A DNA stretch of 64,000 nt from Cyanobacteria bacterium SZAS-4 (GCA_018266255.1 JAFEAT010000010.1:394842-458841); one strand, 5' to 3'. Positions 1,767 to 35,912 are shown, counted from the stretch's first letter. Notes: generated by a model from the sequence alone, not told the origin. Program-made: numbers and translations.

Positions 1767-2988
1767 GTCCCAAAACCTTATCTGCTTCTTTGAGGGCTTC
1801 CAATAATATATCGACTTCTTCTTTTGTGTTGTAAATATAGAAACTTGCTCTTGCCGTTCCCATTACTTTCAGGTCACGCATCAGGGGTTGGCAGCAATGA
1901 TGTCCGGCGCGAATAGCGATGCCGGCATCGTTGAGGATTTGTCCGACGTCATGTGGATGAACGTCTTTGAAATTGAAGGAGATGACGCCACCACGCTTAG
2001 TGGCATCGTGTGGACCGTAGATTTGAGCGTCGCCCAAACCTTTCAGTCCTTTGATTGCGTATTCGACTAGTTCGATTTCGTGAGCGCGCACAGCGTCCAT
2101 TCCCAGGGCGTTGAGATAGTCAATCGCTGCTGCGCTGGCGATGACGTCGGCGATGTTTGGTGTGCCGGCTTCAAATTTCCAGGGCAATTCGTTCCACGTT
2201 GTCTTTTCACGCGACACAGAATTGATCATGTCTCCGCCAGTCATGTACGGTGGCATCGCATTGAGCAATGACTCGCGCCCCCACAAAACGCCGACACCAG
2301 TTGGTCCCAACAGTTTGTGCATCGAGAACGCGAGGAAGTCGCAATCAAGTTCTCTCACCGAAGTTTGCAGATGCGGCACACCTTGTGCGCCGTCGACGAG
2401 AATGACGGCCCCGACATTGTGAGCGAGTTTAGCTAGTTCGTTGATTGGATTGATTGTGCCAAGAACGTTAGACATTTGAGTAACGGCGACGATGCGCGTT
2501 TTCTTCGTAATCAATTTTTCCGCAGCAACGAGATCGATCTCGCCTTCTTCTGTAAGCGGCAAGAATACGAGTTTTGCTTCACGCTCGAGCGCTAGCTGCT
2601 GCCAGGGAACGAAGTTGGAGTGATGTTCCATCGGCGTGATGACAATCTCGTCGCCAGGCAGAACGTTCTGTCGTCCATAGGTCTGCGCCACTAAATTGAT
2701 TGCTTCAGTTGCGTTTTTAGTGAAAATGATTTCGTGCACTTCGGCTGCGTCGATAAACTGACGCAACTTTTCGCGAGTTACTTCGAAAGCTTCAGTCGCT
2801 TCTTCACTCAACGTGTGGATGCCGCGATGAATATTGGCGTTGTAATTTTCGTAATAGTCAGTCAGCGATTTGATCACGCTGAGTGGCTTCTGCGATGTTG
2901 CCGCACTGTCTAAGTAGACGAGTTTTTTTCCGTTGACTTGACGGTCCAGAACTGGGAAATCTTTTCTAACTGCTTTGATATCGAACAT
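1750..2988 (-). CDS. sufS: Cysteine desulfurase SufS (group II, PLP-dependent)
   Basis: 412 aa. PLP-lysine context FSMHKLLGPTGVGVLWG and active-site RAGHHCCQPL. Confidence 0.95.
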   Translation of the reverse strand: MFDIKAVRKDFPVLDRQVNGKKLVYLDSAATSQKPLSVIKSLTDYYENYNANIHRGIHTLSEEATEAFEVTREKLRQFIDAAEVHEIIFTKNATEAINLVAQTYGRQNVLPGDEIVITPMEHHSNFVPWQQLALEREAKLVFLPLTEEGEIDLVAAEKLITKKTRIVAVTQMSNVLGTINPINELAKLAHNVGAVILVDGAQGVPHLQTSVRELDCDFLAFSMHKLLGPTGVGVLWGRESLLNAMPPYMTGGDMINSVSREKTTWNELPWKFEAGTPNIADVIASAAAIDYLNALGMDAVRAHEIELVEYAIKGLKGLGDAQIYGPHDATKRGGVISFNFKDVHPHDVGQILNDAGIAIRAGHHCCQPLMRDLKVMGTARASFYIYNTKEEVDILLEALKEADKVLGHVACR

Positions 2989-3022
2989 GGTTTTGATCCT
3001 TACACTTTTGCTTGCGTGCGCT

Positions 3023-3334
3023 TTAGACGGCGACCCATAAATCTTCTCCGCGCTCTTCGCAGGGATATGTTGCTATCGGTTTCACTGCGGGCATACACAC
3101 CACCGCTCCCGTCTCAACATCGAATCTTGCACCATGGCGGGGACACTCGATTGTGTTCTCCACCAGTTCGCCCTCGCCCAGTGGTCCGCCATCGTGTGTA
3201 CACAAATCATCGACGGCGAAGAACTTGCCTTCTACGTTGCACACCGCGATGCGATGTTTTTCGACTGTGAAAACTTTGACGTGACCTTCAGGCACGTCTG
3301 CTTTGTTTGCAACTTTGCAGAACTCAGCGGTCAT
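3023..3334 (-). CDS. Rieske [2Fe-2S] ferredoxin-like protein inside the suf operon
   Basis: 103 aa with CTHDGGPL (CxH) and CPRHGARF (CxxH) Rieske ligand boxes. Confidence 0.85.
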   Translation of the reverse strand: MTAEFCKVANKADVPEGHVKVFTVEKHRIAVCNVEGKFFAVDDLCTHDGGPLGEGELVENTIECPRHGARFDVETGAVVCMPAVKPIATYPCEERGEDLWVAV

Positions 3335-3340
3335 CAGCGT

Positions 3341-4693
3341 TTACACTCCGTGGATTTTTTCAGCTAGAACGTCGTAGACCCAATCTTTGGCTCTGCCGAT
3401 CGTGCATGCTTCCAAAATTTGTCTGAAGAATCCTGTCACGATCAATTCTTCGGCTGCTGGTGCAGACAAACCGCGACTCATCAAATAGAAAACCTGTTCG
3501 CGATCTACTGGACCGACTGTAGCTCCGTGTGAGCACTTTACGTCGTCGGCGAGAATTTCCAGTTTAGGAATAGAATCGGCGCGGGCTTCATTGCCTAAGA
3601 GCAGATTTTTGTTGCTCTGGAATGCAGCCGTCTTCTGCGCGATCTTGGCGACTTCGATAACTCCTTGATAAATAGATTGGGCGTTGCCCTTCAATGCCAC
3701 TCTAAAGTTGATGTTAGAGCTGGTGTCAGGTGCGTTGTGTTTTTGAATTGTGTTGAAGCTGTAGTGCTCGTCTGTGTCGCCAAGGACGATGCCCTGCAGA
3801 TCGCTTTCTGCACCTTTCGCGTTCAACACTGTGGCGATGTCGCCTTTCAGTTGTGAGCCGCCAAGGGCGACGGTGAGAGACTTTACAGATGCATCTTGTT
3901 CGACTTGATTGTGTGTTCGAGTGACCGCAAACACATTCGAATCGAAACGTTGCACTTCCAGATATTCACACTTTGCTCCGGGGGCAACGTGCACTTCGAC
4001 CAATACGTTTGCTAGTGAGCGCAAAGTTGTTTTGTTCTCTTTTCCTGGCTCGGAGCTGAGAATGTTGACCAGACTGGCTTTGCTGTGCGAGCCAAGAACC
4101 GCTATCAGTCGAGGAAATATGGCGACTCCGTTAGGAGAGCCGTTTGAAGAAGTGAAGTGTGTGAGGCTGACGAACGGACCTTCGATTTCCACATTTGGTG
4201 GCACATAGAGGAAAGTGCCACCATTGAACAAAGCTTTGTTCATCAGAACAAATTTCTGGTCGCTTTCGATTTGCGAAAGATATGGACGAATCAATTCTGC
4301 GTGATCGCGCAAGGCTTCTTTCAGTGTGCAGAAGATTACGCCTTTAGCAGCCAGCTCGGCTGGCAGTTTTGCCGGCACTGACGCTTGACCGACTTCAGCT
4401 ACAACACCTGAGTGATTGTCGAAAAATGTCAGTGCAGTTTCGAACCATTCTGGCAATTTCGCTTTCTCATCTTTCTTGGTGGAAAGATCGATAGCATTCA
4501 AATTCGACAGATCCAAACTTTCAATTTCGGTCTTGCGCCAATCTTCATCGCGACCGGTAGGCATTGGTGTCTGAAGGTAAGCCTCCCAGGACGAGACGCG
4601 TAGCTCTTTCAACCATGATGGTTCGCCATTTTGGGAAGCCAAATTATCCACTCGCTCCCGAGCTATTGTGTTTACCAATTTCGACTCTGACAT
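3341..4693 (-). CDS. sufD: Fe-S cluster assembly protein SufD
   Basis: 450 aa. The C-terminal region ([24 protein letters not shown]) parallels the SufB C-terminus. It sits between sufB and sufS. Confidence 0.9.
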   Translation of the reverse strand: MSESKLVNTIARERVDNLASQNGEPSWLKELRVSSWEAYLQTPMPTGRDEDWRKTEIESLDLSNLNAIDLSTKKDEKAKLPEWFETALTFFDNHSGVVAEVGQASVPAKLPAELAAKGVIFCTLKEALRDHAELIRPYLSQIESDQKFVLMNKALFNGGTFLYVPPNVEIEGPFVSLTHFTSSNGSPNGVAIFPRLIAVLGSHSKASLVNILSSEPGKENKTTLRSLANVLVEVHVAPGAKCEYLEVQRFDSNVFAVTRTHNQVEQDASVKSLTVALGGSQLKGDIATVLNAKGAESDLQGIVLGDTDEHYSFNTIQKHNAPDTSSNINFRVALKGNAQSIYQGVIEVAKIAQKTAAFQSNKNLLLGNEARADSIPKLEILADDVKCSHGATVGPVDREQVFYLMSRGLSAPAAEELIVTGFFRQILEACTIGRAKDWVYDVLAEKIHGV

Positions 4694-4787
4694 TTGTCTT
4701 TCCTTGATTCCGCATTAATTCGGGCCGCTAAATACACTGCGCCAAATCTTTAGATCTGGCGGCAGTGCATAAGAGAGTTCACGATTT

Positions 4788-6227
4788 TTACCCCACCGAA
4801 CCTGACATCTCAAGCTGAATCAGGCGGTTCAGTTCAACAGCGTATTCAAGCGGCAGTTCTTTTGTGAACGGCTCGAAGAATCCGTTGATGATCATCGCGG
4901 TTGCTTCGTCTTGTGTCAGACCTCGGCTCATTAAGTAGAAGAGTTGCTCTTCACCGACTTTTGATACCGTAGCTTCGTGTTCGATCGTGACGTCTTTCTC
5001 GTCGATTTCCATGGTCGGATAAGTATCCGAACGTGATTTTTCATCGAGCAGAAGTGCGTCGCACTTGATGTTCGACTTGGCGCCTTTGGCTTCTGGGTAG
5101 ACTTTTACGAGTCCACGATAAGAAGTTCTGCCGCCGTTCTTCGAGATAGATTTAGAGACGACCAGTGATGTCGTATTTGGTGCAGCGTGCACCATCTTGG
5201 CACCAGCGTCTTGATGTTGGTCTTCGCCGGCAAAAGCAATCGACAAAACTTCACCGTGAGCGCGTTCGCCAACCAGGTGAATAGCTGGATACTTCATGGT
5301 CAGCTTGGAGCCGATGTTTCCGTCGACCCACTCGACCTTTGCATCTGTGTGAGCAACGGCGCGTTTGGTGACGAGGTTGTATACGTTCTTAGACCAGTTT
5401 TGAATTGTCGTGTAGCGAATGTGGGCGCCTGGTTTGGCGATTAATTCAACTACAGCCGAGTGCAACGAGTCTGTGGAATAAGTTGGAGCCGTGCATCCTT
5501 CGATGTAGTGAACGAAGCTGCCCGGTTCAGCGATGATCAATGTTCTTTCGAACTGACCCATATTTTCAGCGTTGATTCTGAAATAAGCTTGCAGTGGGAT
5601 TTCGACTCGAACGCCTTCTGGCACCCAGACGAAACTTCCACCTGACCAAACGGCAGAATTCAGGGCAGAGAACTTGTTGTCTGCAGCAGGAATTACTGTT
5701 CCAAAGTGCTTACGGATAATCTCTTCGTGTTCGCGCAGTCCTGAATCCATATCAAGGAAGATAACGCCTTGCGCTTCCAGATCTTCGCGAATCGAGTGGT
5801 AGACCACTTCCGATTCGTATTGAGCGGTTACGCCAGCGAGAAACTTTCTTTCTGCCTCTGGAATTCCAAGACGATCGAATGTTTGTTTGATGCCTTCTGG
5901 AACGTCGTCCCAACTCTTTTCTGTTTTTTCAGAAGAGCGCACGAAGTAGAAGATGTTTTCAAAATCGATTGAGTCGAGAAGACCACAGTTGCCCCATTTA
6001 GGCATTGGCTTCTTGAGGAATATGTCGAGAGCGCGGAGACGGTATTTCAACATCCACTCCGGCTCGTTCTTCATCGCCGAAATCTTTTCAACGATTTCGC
6101 GTGTCAAACCTCTGCCTGACTTGAAGACATAGTCTTCTTTGTCCTGGAAACCATACTGAGAGTAATCGTTTCCGATGTTGCCGATTGATTGGTCTTGAAT
6201 TAGTTCCGCAGACATGGTCGCCTCCAT
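4788..6227 (-). CDS. sufB: Fe-S cluster assembly protein SufB
   Basis: 479 aa. Conserved SufB blocks [20 protein letters not shown] and [21 protein letters not shown]. Confidence 0.95.
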
Positions 6228-6236
6228 CCGTAAATG

Positions 6237-7007
6237 TTATGAAACACCTGACGGCGTAAGTTCCTGTGATACCCAGTCGTAGCCACGTGCTTCCAGTTCT
6301 TTGGACAGGTCGCCGCCGCCAGATTTGACGATGCGACCATCTTGGAAAACGTGGACGAACTGTGGTTCCACATAATTTAGAATGCGCTGATAGTGTGTAA
6401 TCAGCAAAATTGCAGTTTCCGGATTCGACAAATTGTTGATGCCTTCCGAAACTGTCTTGAGCGCGTCGATGTCGAGACCTGAGTCTGTTTCATCCAATAC
6501 TGCCAGGGCTGGCTTAAGAAGAGCGAGTTGAAGGATTTCAAGTCGCTTCTTTTCTCCACCTGAAAAACCATCATTGATATAGCGTCCAAGAAATTCATTG
6601 GCGACGCCGAGCTTTTTCATCTGCTCTTTCAATTCAGCTCTGAACTCTTTGATCGGAACGTCTTTGCCGCGCACTGCGTTCACCGATGCGCGAACGAAGT
6701 TCGATACGGAAACACCAGGAATCGCCACTGGATATTGAAACGCCAGAGCAAGCCCGGTGCGAGCACGCTCATCGGGTGTCATCTCAGTGATGTCGATGCC
6801 TTTGAAAAGAATTTTGCCTTCAGTTACCACGTAGCGAGGGTGTCCCATCAACGTGTATGACAGAGTTGATTTGCCGGAACCGTTGCGACCCATGATGGCG
6901 TGTACTTCGCCTGGAAAGATCTCCAAGTTGACGCCCTTGAGGATTTCTTTGTCCTCGACTTTGGCGTGGAGATTTTGAACGGAAAGTATCGGTTGTTTAG
7001 CAGTCAT
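6237..7007 (-). CDS. sufC: Fe-S cluster assembly ATPase SufC
   Basis: 256 aa. Walker [13 protein letters not shown] signature FSGGEKKR and Walker [13 protein letters not shown]. Confidence 0.95.
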
Positions 7008-24664: not shown

Positions 24665-27105
24665 ACAGCGGCAGAGATGCTGCTCTGAAAGCTTTGGCGG
24701 CGGCATTATTGCTGGTCTCTTCCAGTTTGCCTCCGGCGCTCTCGCAAGATTCGGCAGGCACATCCTCAGCCACTGCTGCTGCTTCGGCTAAGCCAGGCGC
24801 AGAGGAGTTGAAAGTCGATGACGTCATCAATCGCGCCCTCACTGCGTATGGTGGGCGAGATGCGCTCGCGCAGCTCGAAGCTAACTCGACTGCTTATGGA
24901 AAACAAACTTCCAGCGATTCAGGACAAACCCTAGTTTATCGATGTGAGCGGAAAGGAAACAAATGGCGCATCGATTTAGACACCGCCTCAGCCGAATCTG
25001 GCGATGCCAGTACTGATGCTGCAGCTACGGCCGCGGCGAGTCGAGCCTCAACAAGCACCGCATATGATGGCGTGAATGCCTGGCAATCGGTTGGCGGCGA
25101 AGTAACCAATCTCAGCCCTGACAAATTACTCTGGTTAGATGAGCAGCAGCAGCGCCAACCGACTTTGCTCGGCAAGTTTGGCGAGAAGGGATACACCTTT
25201 ATCTTGCTTGGTAGAACTCAGTATAAACAAATTCCAGTCTACTCAATTGAAGTTACAAAGGAAGGAACGAGTCCGACTACCTTATTCTTGGATCAAAACA
25301 ATTATCTGGTGGTTGCTAGTTCATACGATATCGATAGTATCGCCGGTGATGCGAAGGGCACGACGAAGGTTCCTGTCGCCGTCGAATATAGTGAATACAG
25401 ACCAACCGCCGGAACACTGGTGCCCTTCAAGCAAGTGCAACTGAGCAATACGAAACAAGTTTCGCAATTGGAATTGAGCAGCGTTAACACAGCCACAGCC
25501 GTCGACGAAGCCCTCTTCAATAGACCCAGCAACGGTACTGCTTACCGCGTTTCTAGACCTGTGAGCGTTCCTTTTGATTATTCGCAAAGAGAAATTGTCG
25601 TGAAGGGGCGCATCAACGGTTCTGAAGAACTGGACTTTCTTCTAGACACTGGAGCAAGTGACACCATTATCGATCGTCGTGTGGCGGCCGAGCATTACTT
25701 GACTAAGTTCGGTCAGTACGACATCGCCGCAATGTCGGGAATGGTGACAGCACGGTCTTCTTCGATCAAGCGTATGGAGCTTGGTAATTTGTTGATGAAC
25801 GATGTTCCGGCAAGAATTCTAGACCTCAGTGCGCAGTCTCGGCAGATGGGTAAAAACATTGCCGGCATCATCGGCACTAATGTGATTAGCAAGTTTCTGG
25901 TCACTTTGGATTACGCTAAACCAGCTGTGGTGTTTGCTGATATCGATTCAACTGCGCGCCCGGCAAAAGCGGCTGCTACCGCGTTTACGCAGAAGCAAGC
26001 GCCGTTTGTGAAAGTCGTATTCAACGGCAAAGACGAGCAGGTTTTGTTGTTCGATACAGGAGCGGCATTCAATCATATTCCGCCAAATGTGGCACAGAAA
26101 TATTTGGGAAGCGACCCAGCTAACGTCAGGCACAGCACAGAAGGCACCGGGCTTGATGGCCGACCATTGCAGCTTGGCACTGTTGTCGTTGACACTGTCA
26201 CCATTGGTGGACTGCCTTCTCGCAAGGTCAGCTTCACGTTTCCATCTGGTGCAGAAGCATTGAAAGCAGCAACAAAAAGTGGTGGAAGAGAGGGAGGCTT
26301 TTTTCAAGATTCTCGTCTTGGGATTTTGGGTAATCCATTCTTTCAGAATTTCATCGTCACCATCGATTACAAATTCAATCGTTTATTACTGCAACCAAAT
26401 CCGATCGTGAAGTTGCGCGCCGAGATTGAGCAAGCTTTGAACACTGGCGACGAGAAGCTGGTTGTGCGAAGGGATTTCAGGCTGGCTGAGCTTGCCTATC
26501 AGAAAGCAATGATGATCGCTGACAGTAGTCACGATGCTAAAGAGCAGGCGCGATTGTCGGGGCGTCTCGGAAATTTGCGTCGAGTCATGGCGAAGGATCT
26601 GAATCGGCCAGAGCACGCAAAAGCCGCTTACGATTATTTTGTCAGAGGGCAGGAGAAAGCGAGAAGTGTTCATGCGCAAGACGTCGAGGGACGCATTCTC
26701 GCCGACTGGAGTTTGCTTTATGTCGATAACGGACAGCTCACAGAAGCTAAGCAAACTATCGACAGAGCGTTATTGTTAGCGCCGCAAGATCCAAACGTAA
26801 ACGTCGATATTGCCGTTCATCTATATAAGCAGCGTCTCTTCCCTGAAGCGCAAAAATACATCGAAAAGGCTCTCTTCCTCGATCCTAACAACTGGCAAGC
26901 GCTGTGGTATCAAGTCAAGTTGAGCGAAAACTTTTACGATACGGCGCGCGTGGTGGCAACTCTAAAAGAGATTTTGCGGTTTTATCCGTGGAGCAAAACA
27001 GCAAGCGATAAGTTGCGAAGTTTGACCAATTCCGGTGCCGCCGCTGCTGCATCTCCTTCATCGCCTTCGCCTGTGCAGCGTAATGTAGTCATTCCTGGTC
27101 ATTGA
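24637..27105 (+). CDS. Secreted protein: LolA-like N-domain, two retropepsin-like aspartic protease lobes, C-terminal TPR repeats
   Basis: The maximal ORF starts at GTG 24574, inside kdsA. GTG 24637 gives a classic signal peptide (MFRSRSRKIDSGRDAALKALAAALLLVSSSLPPALS). Two D-T-G-A motifs are present (FLLDTGASDTIID and LLFDTGAAFNHI). TPR-like helices fill the last ~230 aa. Confidence 0.75.
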   Translation: MFRSRSRKIDSGRDAALKALAAALLLVSSSLPPALSQDSAGTSSATAAASAKPGAEELKVDDVINRALTAYGGRDALAQLEANSTAYGKQTSSDSGQTLVYRCERKGNKWRIDLDTASAESGDASTDAAATAAASRASTSTAYDGVNAWQSVGGEVTNLSPDKLLWLDEQQQRQPTLLGKFGEKGYTFILLGRTQYKQIPVYSIEVTKEGTSPTTLFLDQNNYLVVASSYDIDSIAGDAKGTTKVPVAVEYSEYRPTAGTLVPFKQVQLSNTKQVSQLELSSVNTATAVDEALFNRPSNGTAYRVSRPVSVPFDYSQREIVVKGRINGSEELDFLLDTGASDTIIDRRVAAEHYLTKFGQYDIAAMSGMVTARSSSIKRMELGNLLMNDVPARILDLSAQSRQMGKNIAGIIGTNVISKFLVTLDYAKPAVVFADIDSTARPAKAAATAFTQKQAPFVKVVFNGKDEQVLLFDTGAAFNHIPPNVAQKYLGSDPANVRHSTEGTGLDGRPLQLGTVVVDTVTIGGLPSRKVSFTFPSGAEALKAATKSGGREGGFFQDSRLGILGNPFFQNFIVTIDYKFNRLLLQPNPIVKLRAEIEQALNTGDEKLVVRRDFRLAELAYQKAMMIADSSHDAKEQARLSGRLGNLRRVMAKDLNRPEHAKAAYDYFVRGQEKARSVHAQDVEGRILADWSLLYVDNGQLTEAKQTIDRALLLAPQDPNVNVDIAVHLYKQRLFPEAQKYIEKALFLDPNNWQALWYQVKLSENFYDTARVVATLKEILRFYPWSKTASDKLRSLTNSGAAAAASPSSPSPVQRNVVIPGH

Positions 27106-27488
27106 TGTTCAAATCGTTCTGGTTGTTTTTAGGCGTGAGAGGAAGACCATCGCGGGCAAAGGAGCGCGCAGAAAAGCTGCTCCGCACAGCGCCGAGACAA
27201 AGTCTGCTGTCAGTGCAAGCTACCGCCAAATCGATTTTGCAGGAATTGGTTTCAGAAAATTTGGTCCTGGAGAACGCCGCCGACCACAACGAGCGCGCTC
27301 ACGCTTACAGGCTGCTGGGCGATTTGCGAGTCAAGCAAATGAATTTTGCTGACGCCGAAAAACATTATCAGGCCGCCATCGACAGTTATAACGATGCGCT
27401 CAATCTCGAAGCCGATAATAGGACCGCAATTTCGAACAAGTTCAAAACGGTTGAAGCGATGGAAGAGCTGAAACGCACACGCTTTTAG
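27105..27488 (+). CDS. Small TPR-like protein, translationally coupled to the preceding gene
   Basis: The ATG overlaps the upstream TGA (TGATG at 27103-27107). It contains the TPR-like HAYRLLGDLRVKQMNFADAEKHYQAAIDSYNDALNLEADN. Confidence 0.6.
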   Translation: MFKSFWLFLGVRGRPSRAKERAEKLLRTAPRQSLLSVQATAKSILQELVSENLVLENAADHNERAHAYRLLGDLRVKQMNFADAEKHYQAAIDSYNDALNLEADNRTAISNKFKTVEAMEELKRTRF

Positions 27489-27685
27489 CTGTTACAACGC
27501 CCTGGTCGACTTAAGGTACAAATTAGACCCAGTTGCCCGTTAATATCTAATTGTTCCCCCGAATTAACCCCCCGTAAGTCTAACGAGCGAAGCCGAAACA
27601 CTGGCTTGCTTGTGCAGCACTGGCATGGCATTTGTCGTTCACGTGCAACTGCGTTAGAACGCCGATTTTTATTGAGGTGTGTGGC

Positions 27686-30600
27686 GTGCCCCCCACTGAT
27701 AAACCCACAGATAAACCAGCTCCAGAAGCTCCGAGCTTTCCCACCGTTAAAGTTCTGGATGAAATGCAGAAGACTCAGCGCGACCAGACTTCAACTGGAT
27801 CGAGCAAAGAAGAGAAGGGAGCGGGCGAAGAATCGGTGGGGCAATTTAGATTGTTGCTCAATAGAGCTGACAACGGACTCCAGCTGCCTGACCTGAAACT
27901 TGTTCACGGAAAAAAGGAAGGCGGATTTGAGTTAGTAAATCTCAAAGCACCACCCAGAGAACAACCAAAGGCGGAGCCGGGACCAGAAATTCGCTCTGAG
28001 AATGGTCATGTCAGCCGCGTCAACACCGCCCACAACGGCTCTTTCGAAGTGTCCAGCGATGGACACATTCGTCACAAATACAACGGTCGCACTGAGACGA
28101 TCACAGGCAAGCTCGGCGCTGACGATAAGGGGAATGCCTATCTCTATCACGCTGACACGCAAGTCACAGAAGTCTTTAATGCCAACGGCACGACAAGCAA
28201 GCTTTACATGCGCGACTCGCAATACACACAGGAACCCACAATCGGTAGCTTCGATCGGCAAGATCTGCGAGGAGATTTACGACTAGAACTACGACGTGAG
28301 CAACGCCAGAACCCGTTGTTGTCTTATGCTGAAAAATTTGAATCAGTGCGAGAAGAGTCAGACGGTTCAAAAATCATTACCGACTCGAACGGTGAGCGCA
28401 AAGCCATCGAGCAGCAAAACGGCAACGTCTTGCTTTTCAAAGACGGTAAGCTCACTTCGATAACGACTATAGAAGGCACTCTCGAAACTCATGATGGTGG
28501 CAGAACATGGCGCTACGGTGAAACTCCACTTCTTGTGATCGGCGGAGACAACCCGCTCTTGAAACCACAAACTCACTGGCGCCCAGTGCAGGCGCACGTT
28601 GAAGCCGACATTAAGGGGAATGTCGACATAAGTTTTGATAATGGACACCAGCTCCGCCTCAATGCTGATGGCACATCTGAATGGCTGGATGTAAACGGAG
28701 TGCGATGCGTCAACAACTCTGGCGGCAAGCCTGTGCACAAAGAGTTTCCTAACGGAGCGGTAGAAAAATACGAGTACGATCGCGGTTATGAATTCAGAGG
28801 CAATAAAATTGTTGAAAAATTCGACCTGGTCAGCAAGACGCTCACTCCTGGTGAATCATCAGTAGCACTCGATTACAACGGTAATCCTGCTCGTGTCACT
28901 TATCCAAACGGGGAGTTCCGCGACCTTCAAAGCGATAGCAAAGGCAATGCCACCATTACTGATACCGATGGTCATAAGTACAAAGGCACTGTCGAAAAAG
29001 ACGGCACTTTGCATTTCTCGCTCACTCGCGAAAATCAGACTCTCGACTACACGATAAAGCCAGACGGCACCTATGTTGCCACAGGCAAACAGCAAGACGG
29101 GAAGCCTTTCGAGGTGAAAGGTCTGTTCGATAAACCAACCGAAATTACTAATGCTCGCGGCTTGACCCAAATAACATATGACAAAAAAGGAGATGTGCAG
29201 GACGTCACTTGCAACGGTGAAACGATTCGAGCAGGCATCGGACCGTTTGCCGTTCAGACCAATCGCAATGGAGATGTTGCCGTCGCAAACAAGACTGCCA
29301 GCTACATCTTCAAAAATGATGGTACTGGGAGCAGTAAAGGCATAGAGCGAAATTCTACTGTCGAGAAATTGAATGCCAGCGAAAGCCAGGAAAAGTTCTC
29401 AACTTTAGCCGATTTGAACAAGCGCCTTGCCATTCGCAACGAAGACAGTAAATTTGCTAAACCCTGGAACTGGACATCGAGCACAGTCGATGATCTTCGC
29501 GGAGTGATGTCGCCGTCTGTTGCGCTGTCATTGCGTTCAGCAGCAGATGGCATGCCACCGCGCCTGAGAGAGGAAACTCTCGCCCAGGAGCTTCAGTCGA
29601 TTCAGAGCGGTAACCCTGCTGAGCGCTTGAACAGCGTGCAGATGATCGGAGCGTTGGGTCACTACGCTGGCGAAGAGCACGTCAAGGCGCTTGCACAGTT
29701 CCAGGGCGAGACCGGCAAATACAAGTTAGTTGAATCGGGCATGACCGACAAACAGGCAGAGCAATTTCAGCGTCTAGCAGGTCAAGCTCTATTGCGCATT
29801 GCCGACTCCGATAAAGGTGTAAGCGTTTCGCTCGACCATGCCTCCGCTGTGTTGCGCAGTGATGCTCTAGTGCGTGTACCTGGCGATGACAGAGCAGCAG
29901 TTGCAGCCATCGATGCACTCAAGCAAAGCTGGCCGGGTTTGGAAAACGAGCAGACTCGCTCTGCTTTGGTCAGTTATGCAGAAGGAGACATCGTCGAGTT
30001 CAGCAAGAGTGCCGAAGCTCAAAATATAGCTTATGAAGTCGGCATGACACCACCGCTTGCCGAGACATTTCGCACAATGGGAGTGCCAGGCAGCGCTGAG
30101 GAGTTGATGGAAAAGGCACAACAGGCATCACAAAACTACGGCAAAGCCACAGTGGAAAATGTGCTGAGCAATGTCGCTCGCATCAATTCACTAACGCCTG
30201 CGTTGAGACAGGAACTTACCGGTGCCGCCCACGAGTTGAATCCGCTGCAAGTAGTTGGTCAGCTGGAAACCAAAGGCATCGATAACAGCACGCCAACTGG
30301 AAAAGCCCTTCTGTCGAACATGAACGAGTGGCTGACAGCGAAAGAAAAAAGTATCAGCGACAGCATGCGATCGACTGAAAGCGATCTCAGGCTCGAGCAG
30401 TCAGAGTTGAAACGTACATTGAAAGACCTCGACCATCACACAAAAGAAAACGCAGTCTCTCTGTGGCAGAGACTGAAGTACTGTGCCACTTTCACCGGTG
30501 ACATCGACAAATTCGCATCAGAGCAAAGCAAGTTCTGCGCTCAAATTCCAAAACATCAAGCAGATCGGCAGCAGACCATGCAGCAGATGAGCGCGCTGGT

Positions 30601-33334
30601 AATGGACCGTGAGTCCTTAAAACTGGCCGAGCGTGTCGGTTATCAATTCGAATCAACCTACAGAGACGAAAAGCTCGCCGACATGCAAGCACTGGCAGTG
30701 GTGGCAGATACACCCAAGCAAGTATTGCACGACATCGGCAAATCTGTCCTCACGAGTGCAGAGGAATCAATGGCTCGCTTGCATGAAGTTCACAACGCGC
30801 AACTCTCGTCGATACCGACATTCAACCCCAAAGACTTTAACAGCAGTTTGGATTTCATCGCCGGCCTGCATTCGGAAAATGCAGAAGGTCTTCGCCAGTC
30901 TGATCGAACAGCTTTGCAGAAGCTCGCTCTGGACGCAATCGACGCAGATCCGACGATGAAAAAATTCCAGTTCGCTGCTGCTCAAATTGCCGAGCACGGT
31001 TCGACTTTCCACTCTCTTTTTGAAACAGGATTGGGCGGCACTCGCTATGAAGATTTCGTCAAACTGGCTAAGAAGGAGGCCGGTGCCATCGATAGTGCAC
31101 TGAATTCCATCACGGCCGAAGACATACGAGTGATGAACAATCACATTCAAGACATCGATAAGGCGCTGGCGAAAATGGATCCCAATGCCGAGCCTGAAGC
31201 ATTCAAAGCTTTGCAAGATAAGGCAGAAGCCTTACACAAGATGCTCGAAATCGTCGATCCAAATTCCAGGCAGAACAATCAGCTCAAAGACGCTCTTAAC
31301 ACAGTGCTTCGTTCTGACAAATTCGATGAGAGCACATTTTCTAACTGGATAGTAAAAGATGGACCCGTTGTCTTGGCCTCAGTTGCGGCAGCAACGGCAG
31401 TAATTGTTGCCACCGCCGGCACTGGCGCTCCTGTAGCGCTGACAATCTTTGGAATGCTGGCCGCACCAGCCGCTGGTATGGCTGCTGCAGAGGTTGTTCA
31501 GGATATTGAATATGGACTGGGCGCAAGAAAGGACAGTGGTCTTGCTCTTGATTGGGCTAGAGGCAAGGAAGTTTACGATAATGAGACAGGCAAATTCCGC
31601 CAAACAGAATTCATAAATGATGTCGCGGCTACCTATGGCAAACAGTACGCTCGAGATCTGGCAATCACAGTCGCCACCTTAGGACTCGGGAAAGGGCTGT
31701 CCGCCGCGGTAAACTCGACCGGTGGTCCGCAAGCGTTGACCAGACTGCTGGCGGCTAATCGCACAGCCTTGTCTCGCACCGCCACAGCAATGGAAGAAAT
31801 TGAGTCTGCTGTGAGCAAGCAAGTCGTTAAGCAATCTTTCGCTCGCGAGTTCAGCAGACAATTTTTGCAAATGTCAGGCATGGGGGCAACCCAAGCTCTC
31901 GGCGAAGACTCGTTGAATTCTTTGTTGAAAGGCGAGAGTCAAATTCTTATTCCAGTTTTGGTCGGCACGTTATTGACTGCAGCGCACGGAGTGAACTTCC
32001 ACCCAAATGCACGCAACACGCGTGTCAAAGTCGACATGGACCCAAGTGCACCAGAGTTTGCCAACTTTAAGGAGTTTGTCAAACAGCATCAGGAAAACTT
32101 GCGCAGAGATGGAAATGTCGTGGAGCCGCTGGGAAACGGTAGTTACAAGGTCAAGCAATGGAACGGCAAAGAAGTTACATTCGAGCTATCTGAGAACGTA
32201 GCCAGAGCGTTGACTCATTTTGAAAACGCTCAGTCCCTCGATCTTCAACTGAACGAAACATTTGCACGAGCAAAAGTTGTGGACTCGACAGGCGTCGTTT
32301 CGGGCAATGGCACAGTTGAAGTATTTGGCAATTCAAACGTTGAATTGTCTGCTCCTGCCGGTCAGACTCTTAGAGTTGTGGTTCAAGAAGGAACACCTCA
32401 GCTCCGCGTTGCCGAGGGCAACCAGGGGCGGATCGAGTTTGTCAATCACACTACAAACAAGACCCTCAGCGATCAATTCAAAGATGCCGCAGGTAATCCG
32501 GCTAAAAATGTGCATGTGCTTAGTCCGCTGACTGAGATTCTAACGCCGAAGCAAATCGAACGCGTTCTCGAAGTGCAGGAACTACAAGATGCTCTTCCGA
32601 AAGGAAAATTGTCAGAACACCTCAATGCGAATATTGAGGCTCTGCCTGAATCTCAGAGAGCCGAGGCGATCGCGCTGCGCGACGCAGCAAAGGTCAAATT
32701 TGACGAAATTGTTGAAAAAGTCTATGGCGACGGTGCAGCCAAGAAAGAGAAGATTCTGCACATTGTAGTCGGACCGCCCGGTGCCGGTAAGTCGAGCATT
32801 CTCGTCGATCCGCTGTCTAAAAAGCACGGTGCATTTGTAGTGGACTCCGATCATATCAAGCCGCTTCTCGATGGTTACGAGAAAGGTCTTGGTACAAATG
32901 CTGTTCACGCTGATTCCGCTTACATCGGAAACCTCGTTTTGGACAAAGCATTTGCTAATGGTGACAACATTGTCTATCCACAACTTGGGCGTACCAAAGC
33001 CAACTTGGAGGCGCTAATTGCGCGCGCCAAAGAGAAAGGCTATAAGATCGGTCTCCATCTCGCGGATCTTCCACCTGATGAATCGGCACGGAGAGTCTTC
33101 AACCGCAGTGAGCAGGCCCCTGATGCGCGTGGTATCAGGCAGATGGTCGATCCAGAATTTGCTCTCACCACTGTCGGACGCAATCCTGCGCTAGTGTTTG
33201 AGGAAACGATCGCCAAGCCGGAAATGGTCGATGAGTATTCTCACTATGACACCAACGTGCCATATGAACAGAAAGCGAAGTTGGTCAAATCCTCCCACAC
33301 GCCACCATGGACGCCACCAACAAAGAACCCTTGA
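27686..33334 (+). CDS. Giant modular protein ending in a zeta-toxin-like P-loop kinase domain (maximal ORF 27632-33334, 1,900 aa)
   Basis: Single uninterrupted 5.7-kb ORF. GTG 27686 is preceded by GAGG (27674-27677). The N-terminus is Pro-rich and signal-less, followed by YD-like beta repeats (e.g. ALDYNGNPARVTYPNGEF) and a long helical region. Hydrophobic segments lie at 31367-31489, 31658-31712 and 31940-31990. The C-terminal domain has Walker A GPPGAGKS (32771-32794) and VVDSDH 18-20 residues after the Walker Lys (32843-32851). Confidence 0.8.
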   Translation: MPPTDKPTDKPAPEAPSFPTVKVLDEMQKTQRDQTSTGSSKEEKGAGEESVGQFRLLLNRADNGLQLPDLKLVHGKKEGGFELVNLKAPPREQPKAEPGPEIRSENGHVSRVNTAHNGSFEVSSDGHIRHKYNGRTETITGKLGADDKGNAYLYHADTQVTEVFNANGTTSKLYMRDSQYTQEPTIGSFDRQDLRGDLRLELRREQRQNPLLSYAEKFESVREESDGSKIITDSNGERKAIEQQNGNVLLFKDGKLTSITTIEGTLETHDGGRTWRYGETPLLVIGGDNPLLKPQTHWRPVQAHVEADIKGNVDISFDNGHQLRLNADGTSEWLDVNGVRCVNNSGGKPVHKEFPNGAVEKYEYDRGYEFRGNKIVEKFDLVSKTLTPGESSVALDYNGNPARVTYPNGEFRDLQSDSKGNATITDTDGHKYKGTVEKDGTLHFSLTRENQTLDYTIKPDGTYVATGKQQDGKPFEVKGLFDKPTEITNARGLTQITYDKKGDVQDVTCNGETIRAGIGPFAVQTNRNGDVAVANKTASYIFKNDGTGSSKGIERNSTVEKLNASESQEKFSTLADLNKRLAIRNEDSKFAKPWNWTSSTVDDLRGVMSPSVALSLRSAADGMPPRLREETLAQELQSIQSGNPAERLNSVQMIGALGHYAGEEHVKALAQFQGETGKYKLVESGMTDKQAEQFQRLAGQALLRIADSDKGVSVSLDHASAVLRSDALVRVPGDDRAAVAAIDALKQSWPGLENEQTRSALVSYAEGDIVEFSKSAEAQNIAYEVGMTPPLAETFRTMGVPGSAEELMEKAQQASQNYGKATVENVLSNVARINSLTPALRQELTGAAHELNPLQVVGQLETKGIDNSTPTGKALLSNMNEWLTAKEKSISDSMRSTESDLRLEQSELKRTLKDLDHHTKENAVSLWQRLKYCATFTGDIDKFASEQSKFCAQIPKHQADRQQTMQQMSALVMDRESLKLAERVGYQFESTYRDEKLADMQALAVVADTPKQVLHDIGKSVLTSAEESMARLHEVHNAQLSSIPTFNPKDFNSSLDFIAGLHSENAEGLRQSDRTALQKLALDAIDADPTMKKFQFAAAQIAEHGSTFHSLFETGLGGTRYEDFVKLAKKEAGAIDSALNSITAEDIRVMNNHIQDIDKALAKMDPNAEPEAFKALQDKAEALHKMLEIVDPNSRQNNQLKDALNTVLRSDKFDESTFSNWIVKDGPVVLASVAAATAVIVATAGTGAPVALTIFGMLAAPAAGMAAAEVVQDIEYGLGARKDSGLALDWARGKEVYDNETGKFRQTEFINDVAATYGKQYARDLAITVATLGLGKGLSAAVNSTGGPQALTRLLAANRTALSRTATAMEEIESAVSKQVVKQSFAREFSRQFLQMSGMGATQALGEDSLNSLLKGESQILIPVLVGTLLTAAHGVNFHPNARNTRVKVDMDPSAPEFANFKEFVKQHQENLRRDGNVVEPLGNGSYKVKQWNGKEVTFELSENVARALTHFENAQSLDLQLNETFARAKVVDSTGVVSGNGTVEVFGNSNVELSAPAGQTLRVVVQEGTPQLRVAEGNQGRIEFVNHTTNKTLSDQFKDAAGNPAKNVHVLSPLTEILTPKQIERVLEVQELQDALPKGKLSEHLNANIEALPESQRAEAIALRDAAKVKFDEIVEKVYGDGAAKKEKILHIVVGPPGAGKSSILVDPLSKKHGAFVVDSDHIKPLLDGYEKGLGTNAVHADSAYIGNLVLDKAFANGDNIVYPQLGRTKANLEALIARAKEKGYKIGLHLADLPPDESARRVFNRSEQAPDARGIRQMVDPEFALTTVGRNPALVFEETIAKPEMVDEYSHYDTNVPYEQKAKLVKSSHTPPWTPPTKNP

Positions 33335-33338
33335 TCGG

Positions 33339-33530
33339 TCAAGAAGACTTTTTTTCTTTCTTGTCAAACGCCTTGAGCGCTTCTGCTTCTGCTGCAGTGG
33401 GGTCGAACATGACCCTACCGGCTTCTGTGATAATCAAATCACTACGTTTGTAGCCGTTCTTAATCATCTGAGCTATTTTTGCTTCGATGCGAGCTTGCTT
33501 CTCTTCTTCAGATTCATCAGGTTGAGTCAT
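33339..33530 (-). CDS. Small charged helical protein, downstream partner of the phosphatase gene
   Basis: 63 aa. A strong SD (GAGGAGG) lies 6 nt upstream of the ATG, which is 35 nt downstream of the phosphatase stop on the same strand. Its stop is only 4 nt from the stop of the convergent giant gene. Confidence 0.6.
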   Translation of the reverse strand: MTQPDESEEEKQARIEAKIAQMIKNGYKRSDLIITEAGRVMFDPTAAEAEALKAFDKKEKKSS

Positions 33531-33565
33531 GAGTTGCCTCCTCGATTAATCCAGTAAAGACAATG

Positions 33566-34174
33566 CTATTCTGCGACCTTGACGTGAGTCGACTGATCTT
33601 CAGCATAGTGTTTTACAGCGCCCGCTAGTTTGGTGAATTTGGGCGTGAAAAAGTATTTGCGCATTTCCTGGTAAGCCTTGTCATAGTCCCAGTTCTCGTG
33701 TGTGACGCGCCAGATTCCGACCATGCATCCGGTGCGGTCTGAACCGTGTGCACAGTGCACAAAAACAGGACCACCACCCTTCTCTGCTTTCTCGACTGCA
33801 TCGATAAAGGTGTGTACTTGCTTTTCTGTCGGTGCATCAGACGCCATCGTCATGTTGATATATTTGATGCCTAGCTCGTCTGCGAGTGCTTTTTCCTCTT
33901 TTGGTTGGATTGGATCATCTTCTTTCGTTCTGGAAGCTTTGGGCTTGCCTTCAGATGGTGCGCGTAAATCGATGATCGTTTTGATGCCTTTGTCTTTCAA
34001 GGCAGGCATCGTTTTTTCGGTCGGTCCACCACCTCTATAAAGATATGGATGCACCTCGTGAAAGTTCAACAAGCCAGGCAGCTCAGTTGGTACATTGCCA
34101 GCGAGGGCTGCGGTCACCGAAGAAAGTATGATTAGAGAGCGGATTGCGAACCGCCAGGGCACCGTTGGTTTCAT
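33566..34174 (-). CDS. Secreted atypical dual-specificity / tyrosine phosphatase (Siw14/Oca-like, CX5R)
   Basis: 202 aa. Signal peptide MKPTVPWRFAIRSLIILSSVTAALAG. LYRGGGP motif and P-loop VHCAHGSDRTGCMVGIWRV (CX5R). Confidence 0.8.
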   Translation of the reverse strand: MKPTVPWRFAIRSLIILSSVTAALAGNVPTELPGLLNFHEVHPYLYRGGGPTEKTMPALKDKGIKTIIDLRAPSEGKPKASRTKEDDPIQPKEEKALADELGIKYINMTMASDAPTEKQVHTFIDAVEKAEKGGGPVFVHCAHGSDRTGCMVGIWRVTHENWDYDKAYQEMRKYFFTPKFTKLAGAVKHYAEDQSTHVKVAE

Positions 34175-34395
34175 TTGAACTTCTTAAATTCGGGGAAGAC
34201 TGTGCAAATCCACATACGATCTGCACGAAATCAGTTTTAGCATGGTAGGACGGCTTTAGTCTTTCTGCCGACAGGTGGACCGGTGTGTGGAATTCGTGAT
34301 GTTTTTATTAACAATTTCTCATAAATGCCGTTTTGATTGAACCATTTCTTCTCTGATTACGTAGTTATAGATGAAACCAATGATTTGGTTGGGGG

Positions 34396-35037
34396 ATGGC
34401 AGTGGACCTTACCGACGAGGCCCTAATTGAAAACTTCCGGAGAACTGAAAACATTACGATGTTTCAGACTCTGGTGCGGCGATATCAAAGCCGCATCTAC
34501 ACTGCAGCATTCCGCATTCTATCTAACTCAGAGGAGGCTGAAGAAGTTGTGCAAGATACGTTCTTGAAGGTGCATCAAAATATTTCCAAGTTCAGGCAGC
34601 AAGCCTCGTTCTCGTCATGGGTATTCAAGATTGCCCATAACCAGTGCATGGATATTTTGCGCAACCGTCAGCGTAGAAAAGGATTTCGGTTGCTCTCGTT
34701 CGATCCCCAATCAAATAAACCAGAGCCGACTGAGGAGGCAATGGAAGCGTATTCGGTCATCTCGCAGTTGACCGATCCAGGTGCGGATCCTTCGCAATCG
34801 CTGGAGCTGAATGAGCAAGGAAAGATGGTGACTGATGCTCTGAAGCAGCTGACTGACACGCAAAGAACGGTAGTGGTGTTACACGATATAGAAGGATTTC
34901 AATATCAGGAGATTGCCGAGATTGTCGGCACAAGCATCGGAACGGTGCGTTCGCGCCTTCACTACGGCCGAATCAAGTTGAAAGAATTACTGGAGCCCTA
35001 TTTTTCCCAACAAAATATGTCCGCTATTTCCAGGTGA
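34396..35037 (+). CDS. ECF-type RNA polymerase sigma-70 factor
   Basis: 213 aa. Region 2 (WVFKIAHNQCMDILRNR) and region 4 (YQEIAEIVGTSIGTVRSRLHYGR). Confidence 0.9.
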   Translation: MAVDLTDEALIENFRRTENITMFQTLVRRYQSRIYTAAFRILSNSEEAEEVVQDTFLKVHQNISKFRQQASFSSWVFKIAHNQCMDILRNRQRRKGFRLLSFDPQSNKPEPTEEAMEAYSVISQLTDPGADPSQSLELNEQGKMVTDALKQLTDTQRTVVVLHDIEGFQYQEIAEIVGTSIGTVRSRLHYGRIKLKELLEPYFSQQNMSAISR

Positions 35038-35042
35038 TTGCC

Positions 35043-35912
35043 ATGTCCAACGATTTTAATTGCAAACAACTAGAACCTCTTCTCAGCGCTTATCACGATG
35101 GTGAGCTGACTGAGGCAGAGCGTGCAGACGCAGACCGCCACTTGAATGGGTGTGCTGATTGTCAAAACCGTTTGCTCGAAATTAGTGCTGTTGCAACCTC
35201 GCTGAAATCGTTGCCCCGTCTGAATCCTAAAACCGATGTGGCGGCAAACATCGAACAGCTCATTGCAAATCAACCGAAGGGAATCAGTCGAATTCAGCCA
35301 CCTGTAATCTGGGGTGCCGCTGGAATTGCAGCTGCAGCAGCCGTTCTTCTGGTAGCAGGCAATTTTAAAGCTGTGACTAATCAGGCAAATAATCCGCTCA
35401 CTGCAAACTCCAAGACCAACCAGGTTATGCCAAAGCCCATGCCAAACGCTGTCAAATCGCAAGAATTGGAGATCGCTCACAATCTAGACACCACTGCAAA
35501 TCCAATCCAAGACTTTACAGAGCCTGCGCAAATCAGCGCGCATCACGATCAAAGTAGTGCGCCAAACGGCACAGTGTCCAAGAAAGAAGGTGGTATGCCA
35601 ACACAGCATGAAAAACCTACGACGGACAACAACGCAAAGAAAAATTCGAAATTCAATCCGCATTTGCAAGTTGCTAGTAACGGCAACGAGGGTGCCACCA
35701 ACGCGGTTGCTACCAATGCGGTCGCTACTGCATCCGGTTCTCAATCAGATGCGAGTGCACCTCAACTTATCGCTAATCGAAATGTAGGCACTGCATCGAT
35801 CGGCGGCGCAGATAGCAGTCTGGTCGCCATTTACGATACAGAGCAACGCGGCGTCACTGAAGAACTAGGGATCACAACCGACGAGGATGGACTGTATGCG
35901 ATCAAGCTTTAA
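35043..35912 (+). CDS. Anti-sigma factor (zf-HC2 type), single-pass membrane protein
   Basis: ATG 35043 is preceded by AGGTGA (maximal ORF from GTG 35034). Contains LSAYHDGELTEAERADADRHLNGCADCQNRL and one TM helix (VIWGAAGIAAAAAVLLVAG). Confidence 0.8.
   Translation: MSNDFNCKQLEPLLSAYHDGELTEAERADADRHLNGCADCQNRLLEISAVATSLKSLPRLNPKTDVAANIEQLIANQPKGISRIQPPVIWGAAGIAAAAAVLLVAGNFKAVTNQANNPLTANSKTNQVMPKPMPNAVKSQELEIAHNLDTTANPIQDFTEPAQISAHHDQSSAPNGTVSKKEGGMPTQHEKPTTDNNAKKNSKFNPHLQVASNGNEGATNAVATNAVATASGSQSDASAPQLIANRNVGTASIGGADSSLVAIYDTEQRGVTEELGITTDEDGLYAIKL

Follow-up and report, generated by a model that had tools for sequence, protein, structure and literature searches.

Our analysis of a 64,000-nucleotide (nt) stretch of the genome of Cyanobacteria bacterium SZAS-4 (GCA_018266255.1 JAFEAT010000010.1:394842-458841; hereafter 'the window', with positions counted from its first letter) suggests that a giant gene ending in a kinase domain of the Zeta_toxin superfamily and a 63-amino acid (aa) gene lying directly 3' of it form a two-gene module, in which the giant-borne kinase would be a toxin and the small protein its cognate inhibitor; on balance, we regard this reading as slightly favored. 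It builds on the reading frame itself, the fold and catalytic residues of the kinase, conserved synteny, the co-divergence of the partner, and a central module that the giant shares with other carriers. The first gene would encode a signal-less, membrane-associated protein that terminates in a zeta/AvrRxo1-type small-molecule kinase, and the most likely role of the second gene's product is to bind that kinase and thereby hold it inactive in the producer. Epsilon is known to keep zeta inactive, and Arc1 likewise AvrRxo1. The carrier itself probably either holds the kinase in a membrane or is the means by which it enters one, and kinase plus partner may have behaved in evolution as a mobile cassette, found on carriers that range in length from 328 residues to beyond 3,500. 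The argument turns on the following features, with lengths in aa or base pairs (bp):

27686..33334 (+), giant gene, 1882 aa from the GTG at 27686 (the open frame from the TTG at 27632 yields 1900 aa)
32741..33334 (+), zeta/AvrRxo1-like P-loop kinase domain, identified by Pfam, by an AlphaFold2 (AF2) model searched with Foldseek, and by profile search against the Protein Data Bank (PDB)
33339..33530 (-), acidic 63-aa partner gene, convergent with the giant gene, 4 bp between the stop codons of both

On sequence and model evidence, the C-terminal domain belongs to the Zeta_toxin superfamily and has its catalytic residues complete. The Walker A motif GPPGAGKS (32771-32794) and the DSD motif (32843-32851; 18-20 residues past the Walker Lys) are located and spaced as an earlier note on this DNA had described, and its assignment of the domain to the zeta superfamily stands: Pfam Zeta_toxin (PF06414) reaches 41.2 bits on the full-length protein and 46 bits on the domain alone (cut-off 22.3), and zeta, AvrRxo1 and PezT lead the fold search, with zeta also retrieved by profile. 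Specifically, an AF2 model covering the C-terminal 250 residues (predicted local distance difference test, pLDDT, 81) retrieved from the PDB by Foldseek (i) zeta (3Q8X, 1GVN) at 7e-10 to 4e-9, (ii) AvrRxo1 (4Z8Q) at 8e-9 as the second-best structural match, and (iii) PezT (2P5T) at 2e-7. The zeta/AvrRxo1/PezT matches range from 7e-10 to 5e-7 with TM-scores of ∼0.6, and polynucleotide and adenylate kinases follow at 2e-5 or weaker, that is, 3-4 orders of magnitude behind. A profile of the kinase clade searched against the PDB likewise identified zeta (1GVN_B; E 1.3e-8). In the resulting alignment the Walker A Lys residues coincide, D1740 (the second Asp of VVDSDH; residue numbers refer to the 1900-aa frame unless stated otherwise), and not D1738, corresponds to zeta D67, and the Arg of RRVFNR corresponds to the lid Arg, zeta R158. 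Because these three positions align, the phosphotransfer machinery is predicted to be complete; across the kinase clade, three residues (D88, D90 and R175, in a numbering other than that of the 1900-aa frame) do not vary. Profile and fold searches were needed for this assignment, since phmmer, run on the PDB with the domain as a single sequence, returned only weak adenylate-kinase and AvrRxo1 matches. The NCBIfam model for AvrRxo1/XopAJ (NF041405) scores 21.5 bits on the kinase against a cut-off of 300.

The earlier note had concluded that this kinase lacks an antitoxin, and had assigned the small convergent open reading frame (ORF) to the transcript of a neighboring phosphatase gene. The comparative evidence leads to a different view: the 63-aa ORF is, judged from sequence conservation, a real gene and a conserved partner of this kinase clade. 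It is preceded by a strong Shine-Dalgarno sequence, GAGGAGG, 7 nt before its ATG, and comparison with the corresponding gene of locus L006 yields a ratio of nonsynonymous to synonymous substitution rates (dN/dS) of 0.22; NCBI annotates it as a hypothetical protein. A shared core, GY-x3-L-x4-5-G-x-V-x2-D-x6-DAF, is present in the window ORF and at all paired loci. A hidden Markov model (HMM) of the partner, built from five core copies to the exclusion of the window, L006, L011, L044-46, L049 and L050, was searched against the 1,901 six-frame ORFs of the window and gave a single match, namely the 63-aa ORF (E 4.4e-8; next E 1.9); no array of spare toxin/immunity cassettes was seen in the window with this model. 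In nine of the ten assessable loci the partner lies directly 3' of the kinase, co-directional in six of them, and the pairing holds for carriers from 328 aa to 3,515 aa (L048, where the contig ends too soon, was left out of the count). Besides the window, the pairs are:

L001 (Vampirovibrio sp.), partner of 131 aa with two tandem motif copies, co-directional 3' of the kinase
L002-L005, partner of 111 aa, co-directional 3' of the kinase
L010, partner of 113 aa, co-directional 3' of the kinase
L009/L011 (Obscuribacteraceae metagenome-assembled genome, MAG; the kinase ends a 3515-aa ORF), partner of 65 aa, co-directional
L049 (3449-aa giant), partner of 64 aa, co-directional 3' of the kinase
L050 (2536-aa giant), partner of 65 aa, co-directional 3' of the kinase
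L044-46 (735-aa protein), partner of 61 aa, convergent
L006 (1923-aa giant), partner of 63 aa, convergent

Seven of nine partners are acidic, and the identity matrices of kinase and partner are congruent (Mantel r 0.76, p 4e-4). The partner family comprises 19 clusters among 5.8 billion proteins, none of which is named or has a Pfam domain, and a partner profile searched against the PDB produced only short, spurious lectin matches, with no stretch passing. The survey of homologues for conserved, immunity-like neighbors that the earlier note had proposed has brought to light a small partner family, and since the 63-aa gene is the single gene that accompanies the kinase at nine of ten loci, the puzzle of self-protection largely vanishes.

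The giant gene is carried by one unbroken ORF of 1900 codons (27632-33334, + strand; ORF list and translation). The continuity that had been claimed for it is borne out by a homologue and by coding constraint; the length of 1,900 aa is probably to be shortened, as the start is likely the in-frame GTG at 27686, giving 1882 aa, rather than the TTG at 27632. The GTG has a GAGG 7 nt 5' of it, and the NCBI model for the identical protein likewise comprises 1882 aa; that record, on a 482-kb contig, is named 'zeta toxin family protein [Cyanobacteria bacterium SZAS-4]'. Protein P0002 (1923 aa; locus L006, Logan SRR28520286), which stems from an unrelated sequencing run and thus from a data set independent of the window, is 78% identical to the giant and collinear with it over residues 21-1900. 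The dN/dS ratio between the two is 0.14 overall and below 1 in each segment (Nei-Gojobori), that is, purifying selection acts across all segments of the giant, and the G+C content is flat at ∼0.50 over the region of the gene. A collinear independent homologue, the dN/dS values and the flat G+C content together allow one to set aside a chimeric misassembly or a spurious ORF. A word-indexed search with the full-length giant returned only itself and one homologue; the kinase family was exposed by an exhaustive representative search with the C-terminal domain.

In the giant, as read from its sequence, a variable head leads into a conserved module with helical and transmembrane parts, which is followed by the beta domain and finally the kinase. 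Upstream of the kinase domain, the following segments can be distinguished:

27686..27958 (+), Pro/Lys-rich N-terminus, residues 19-109, from composition and hydropathy
27959..29491 (+), variable 'head', residues ∼110-620, G/N/D/T-rich in composition
29498..32224 (+), conserved central module, residues ∼623-1531, from homology to other giant kinase carriers
31349..31498 (+), hydrophobic hairpin of two transmembrane-like helices, residues 1240-1289, Kyte-Doolittle maximum 2.03
31937..31999 (+), third hydrophobic segment, residues 1436-1456, Kyte-Doolittle maximum 1.72
32231..32458 (+), small all-beta domain, residues ∼1530-1610, 5' of the kinase linker

Composition (Pro and Lys 10.9% each in residues 19-110) and hydropathy (no signal-peptide-like hydrophobic core at the N-terminus) agree with the earlier description of a Pro/Lys-rich, signal-less N-terminus, which is the least conserved segment of the giant (64% identity to P0002); for residues 1-620, P0002 is the sole homologue found. 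The head, residues ∼110-620, is probably beta-rich and contains 23 D/N-G dipeptides. The YD-like beta-hairpin repeats that had been read into this part were not recovered: self-BLAST of residues 110-620 revealed neither internal repeats nor YD motifs. An RHS/YD array is not demonstrable in the head (RHS_repeat E 0.57, 11 bits against a cut-off of 22, no stretch passing), and the giant is not an RHS toxin, with neither RHS repeats nor an RHS core found. More broadly, searches with Pfam, NCBIfam and PHROGs detected no PAAR, RHS-core, LXG, TPS or MuF domain in the giant.

In the central module, an Ala/Leu/Glu-rich region precedes the hydrophobic segments. The composition of the former is what suggests helices, as had been proposed, and the 'HEAT-like' label attached to them finds no support in Pfam. 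The module aligns with P0019 (3449 aa) at 30% identity over 929 aa (E 2e-107) and with the 3515-aa ORF of L011 at 29% identity over 1001 aa (E 7e-104), and more weakly with P0026, P0024, P0027 and P0083. The three hydrophobic segments noticed earlier are confirmed as the hairpin (two helices) and the segment at residues 1436-1456. The hairpin lies in the most conserved segment of the giant (92% identity to P0002, dN/dS 0.07), the third segment is retained in P0002, and a hydrophobic stretch of ∼20-50 residues recurs in every other giant carrier that was inspected. The hairpin could equally well be an anchor in the membrane of the producer or a device for insertion into a target membrane. The all-beta domain, which is separated from the kinase by a helical linker, is common to P0011, P0012, P0013, P0014, P0015 and P0022, and the relatives that share beta domain plus helical linker are of 714-792 aa and 2536-5546 aa. 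AF2 predicts the core of the beta domain with confidence (pLDDT 87-93), and a Foldseek search of the model against the PDB gave nothing significant (best E 1.6). No paralogue of the N-terminal 1,240 residues of the giant was found in the window.

Close relatives of the kinase (45-80% identity) reside on proteins of 328, 360, 364, 735, 1923, 2536, 3449 and 3515 aa, and among the 150 best representative relatives, many measure 700-5,500 aa. Carriers larger than the giant are encoded in the Obscuribacteraceae MAG (L011, 53-10600, + strand, 3515 aa) and elsewhere (3449 and 5546 aa; P0014, P0019). The 293-aa protein P0007 is merely the C-terminal fragment of a giant carrier on a short contig. The carriers apparently come from Melainabacteria (Obscuribacteraceae, Vampirovibrio); a literature search found no link between Melainabacteria and zeta toxins. 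A genome scan yielded three loci only. A metagenome scan yielded 30 distant loci (25-44% identity), with the partner in none, and the distant relatives without a partner are either marine proteins of ∼1,100 aa or soil kinases of 199 aa. At the marine metagenome loci L012-L031 a ∼1,100-aa protein recurs with the kinase at residue ∼870 and no small partner; these proteins are probably of phage or polyvalent type. At L007 a kinase of 40% identity (696-1684) shares a 4-bp overlap with a different, 75-aa downstream ORF, behind which lies a gene coding for over 1,700 aa (2338-6460) and lacking any Pfam domain; it seems from this locus that the partner family changes with the kinase clade.

Several observations weigh against the proposed module of toxin and inhibitor, and they concern the kinase as well as its partner and its carrier. 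As to the kinase, Pfam AAA_33 also scores 38-42 bits (cut-off 27), nearly level with Zeta_toxin, and because both pass with similar scores, Pfam alone barely separates the two. In addition, the residues with which zeta binds UDP-N-acetylglucosamine (UDP-GlcNAc, UNAG) are not kept as a set. Of the zeta set E116, T118, R120 and T121 (IEGTGRT), to which YPQLGRT aligns, E116 is replaced by Pro and T118 by Leu in the window kinase, so that toxicity is not assured. The Arg and Thr of this set are kept in the window, and the Arg varies in the clade (HPTTGYC, YPTTGGD), which has invariant motifs of its own (GLGxNAVHxxS, NGDN, KGYK). With two of these residues exchanged and R120 variable among clade members, UDP-GlcNAc as the target, which had previously been implied from family membership, cannot be assumed; a nucleotide or nucleotide-sugar is the probable substrate, but it need not be UDP-GlcNAc.

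As to the partner, no such gene is present in the 880 bp available downstream of the kinase at L047 (P0003, a 167-aa fragment of 68% identity). The congruence of the identity matrices amounts to co-inheritance, and neighbors that are inherited jointly can give congruent trees. Moreover, the partner gene of the window is convergent and lies behind the phosphatase gene, and for this reason its expression would be uncoupled from that of the kinase gene, unlike in classical toxin-antitoxin operons. As to the carrier, its topology is ambiguous because three transmembrane segments are predicted and a signal peptide is absent, and searches with Pfam, NCBIfam, PADLOC and PHROGs found no secretion signal, trafficking domain or neighboring secretion system. 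We also observe that the stop codons of giant and partner (33334-33339) are 4 bp apart in the window, and likewise at L006, with no terminator-like element between them. Given such a gap, the convergent transcripts must overlap or collide, and the pair could be subject to antisense control or to transcriptional interference. A promoter and terminator scan of 33200-34500 remained at background level.

The alternative that survives best assigns no toxicity to the kinase. It could be a membrane-anchored housekeeping or regulatory enzyme, whose small-molecule substrate might be, for instance, a precursor of the envelope or a nucleotide cofactor, with the small protein serving as regulatory subunit, substrate carrier or assembly factor, which we deem rather unlikely. 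The chromosomal surroundings would suit it, as they consist of ordinary metabolic and regulatory genes of uniform G+C content. PADLOC and PHROGs gave no meaningful match for giant, partner or phosphatase, plasmids and phages lack close relatives, and the near tie with AAA_33 and the unconserved UNAG pocket point the same way. However, the nearest structural relatives are without exception toxins or effectors with protein inhibitors, the cassette sits on very different carriers in a patchy, narrow distribution typical of conflict systems, and the N-terminal heads of the carriers are hypervariable.

A delivered, zeta-like effector devoid of any antitoxin, with self-protection arising in cis, from compartmentalization or from a non-self target, was the reading put forward originally, and we would now give it a slim chance. 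It was correctly observed that no epsilon/PezA-type gene lies upstream, where Pfam identifies an aspartyl-protease/TPR gene and a TPR gene instead, which is also a departure from canonical PezAT loci. EzeT of E. coli, a two-domain protein in which an N-terminal antitoxin domain neutralizes the zeta domain in cis, demonstrates that cis-acting antitoxin domains exist in the zeta family, and the beta domain and helical linker conserved directly 5' of the kinase in several relatives might be viewed in this light, as might L047 with its lack of a small gene. Yet the 63-aa gene is conserved, under purifying selection and adjoins the kinase in nine of ten loci, and the pairing includes 328-364-aa proteins that lack the upstream regions of the giant altogether.

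A further possibility is that the antidote is enzymatic, with a phosphatase reversing the kinase product and the small protein acting as its adaptor or as a second layer; this would be compatible with the preferred reading of toxin and inhibitor, and we find it doubtful to much the same degree as the view of an orphan effector. The feature in question is:

33566..34174 (-), phosphatase of DSP-PTPase type, same strand as the partner gene and 35 nt 5' of it

The protein matches Pfam PTP-NADK (PF22741; 2e-20) and Tc-R-P (PF22785; 9e-13), the latter of which we take to denote a phosphatase of a 'polymorphic toxin system', and its gene is possibly co-transcribed with that of the partner. AvrRxo1-type kinases yield 3'-NADP, whose reversal would require removal of a nucleotide 3'-phosphate. 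At L044 (8765-9742, - strand) a DHH/DHHA1-like phosphoesterase, which is unrelated to the DSP-PTPase and scores just under the Pfam cut-offs, occupies the equivalent position, and two unrelated phosphoesterases 5' of the partner, seen at the two convergent loci that have sufficient flanking sequence, may reflect non-orthologous recruitment of a product-reversing phosphatase. However, such an adjacent gene is seen at only two of nine loci (it is absent from L001, L002, L010, L011, L049 and L050; L006 is not assessable, its contig breaking off shortly after the partner), and one of the two rests on matches below threshold. Any functional link of the phosphatase is only a lead.

Finally, distant relatives with LPD38, ddrB-ParB or GH108 domains and best BFVD matches to multi-domain phage proteins recall the polyvalent proteins described by Iyer et al. 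2017 (PMC5512222), but it is very improbable that the giant is a phage or conjugative polyvalent protein or an assembly chimera of unrelated genes, given that no LPD or mobile-element domains were found in it and no mobile genes nearby, that tblastn against plasmids and phages returned no relative above 31% identity, and that collinear full-length homologues from independent samples with uniform coding constraint contradict a chimera.

Comparison with known systems helps to place the preferred pairing of kinase toxin and inhibitory partner. Canonical zeta and PezT are free proteins of 250-290 aa with the antitoxin encoded immediately upstream. The window kinase shares their P-loop kinase fold (1GVN, 3Q8X and 2P5T are among the top structural matches, with 1GVN leading the profile search) and, as in epsilon/zeta, is genetically paired with a small acidic protein. 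It differs in being the C-terminal domain of a 1,882-aa protein, in having its partner downstream and convergent, with no Pfam family or solved structure matched, and in bearing GLGxNAVHxxS and NGDN motifs along with the replacements of E116 and T118. Lacking both the UNAG residues and an upstream antitoxin, the locus is not a canonical epsilon/zeta-PezAT system. AvrRxo1 (XopAJ) is a type III-secreted, zeta-like kinase that is delivered into another cell and whose gene is followed downstream by arc1, encoding an antitoxin/chaperone, which sets a precedent in this superfamily for an antitoxin gene 3' of the toxin. The window kinase is not a member of the AvrRxo1/XopAJ family; beyond the related fold, the likeness to the window, with its partner 3' of the kinase, is confined to gene order, as the 63-aa protein lacks the Arc1 motif KExFD(x25-27)[YL]ExxYY, type III context is missing, and the carrier is a giant with transmembrane segments. 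With polymorphic toxins the module shares a toxin-type domain at the extreme C-terminus, a small gene immediately 3' of it, and the occurrence of one tip-plus-partner cassette on very different carriers; unlike them, it has no recognized trafficking or secretion domain or signal peptide, and the partner is convergent in the window. EzeT is similar in that a zeta-like kinase is placed C-terminally in a longer polypeptide, and dissimilar in that the giant has a separate partner gene and ∼1,700 upstream residues of unrelated modules.

There are precedents for zeta-like kinases within giant proteins of many domains. The earlier statement that such a fusion is undescribed went too far in view of the long relatives listed above, the NCBI name of the identical protein, and the work of Iyer, Burroughs, Anand, de Souza and Aravind (2017; PMC5512222), who reported zeta-toxin-like kinases as parts of polyvalent proteins and of MuF fusions. 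The giant resembles polyvalent proteins in having a zeta-like kinase inside a very large multi-domain protein, and is set apart from them by its chromosomal, non-mobile context, the strictly C-terminal position of the kinase, the hairpin module, the dedicated partner, and the absence of marker domains. Three things appear to be new: the family of small partners, a substrate pocket peculiar to the clade, and the giant carriers with their shared transmembrane-hairpin module.

The remaining neighborhood adds the following observations. Upstream of the giant lie a gene for an 843-aa protein (24574-27105, + strand) with retropepsin-like aspartyl protease domains, C-terminal TPRs and a weak PADLOC match to PDC-M08B and, overlapping it by 4 bp and located just 5' of the giant, a gene for a 128-aa TPR protein (27102-27488, + strand); neither is conserved at related loci. 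Beside the phosphatase gene, and divergent from it, is a pair encoding an extracytoplasmic function (ECF) sigma factor and a zf-HC2 anti-sigma factor (34396-35912, + strand). Farther away, a signal-less 749-aa protein (17746-19995, + strand) combines an RHS_repeat match above the cut-off (31.6 bits) and a proline-rich tandem linker (PEVRR/PETRK) with a C-terminal region whose Cys...His pattern is reminiscent of papain-like peptidases. It may represent a second modular 'repeat plus effector' protein of this genome, and BLAST detected no similarity between it and the giant. Other neighbors in the window encode pyruvate kinase, a GH57 branching enzyme and KdsA.

Few toxin families attack small-molecule metabolism (UDP-GlcNAc, nicotinamide adenine dinucleotide), and zeta-type kinases are one of them; the non-photosynthetic relatives of cyanobacteria include the predatory Vampirovibrio. 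It is tempting to speculate that the giants might be Melainabacteria-specific, membrane-inserting effectors delivered by contact or secretion, in which the hairpin would move a kinase with a target other than UNAG into prey or competitors, and the 63-aa protein would provide a new immunity fold that is sometimes backed up by a recruited phosphatase; we would grant this bolder scenario a small chance. If the carriers do deliver the kinase, they would constitute a new delivery scaffold. If the partner is an inhibitor, it would represent a further antitoxin or immunity family beside epsilon/PezA and Arc1, apparently unrelated to either, and would provide a handle on the substrate of the kinase. 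A more general lesson is that the puzzle of an 'orphan toxin' arose here from overlooking a small convergent ORF. Neither the partner family nor the carrier family has been described before, and both lend themselves to experiment.

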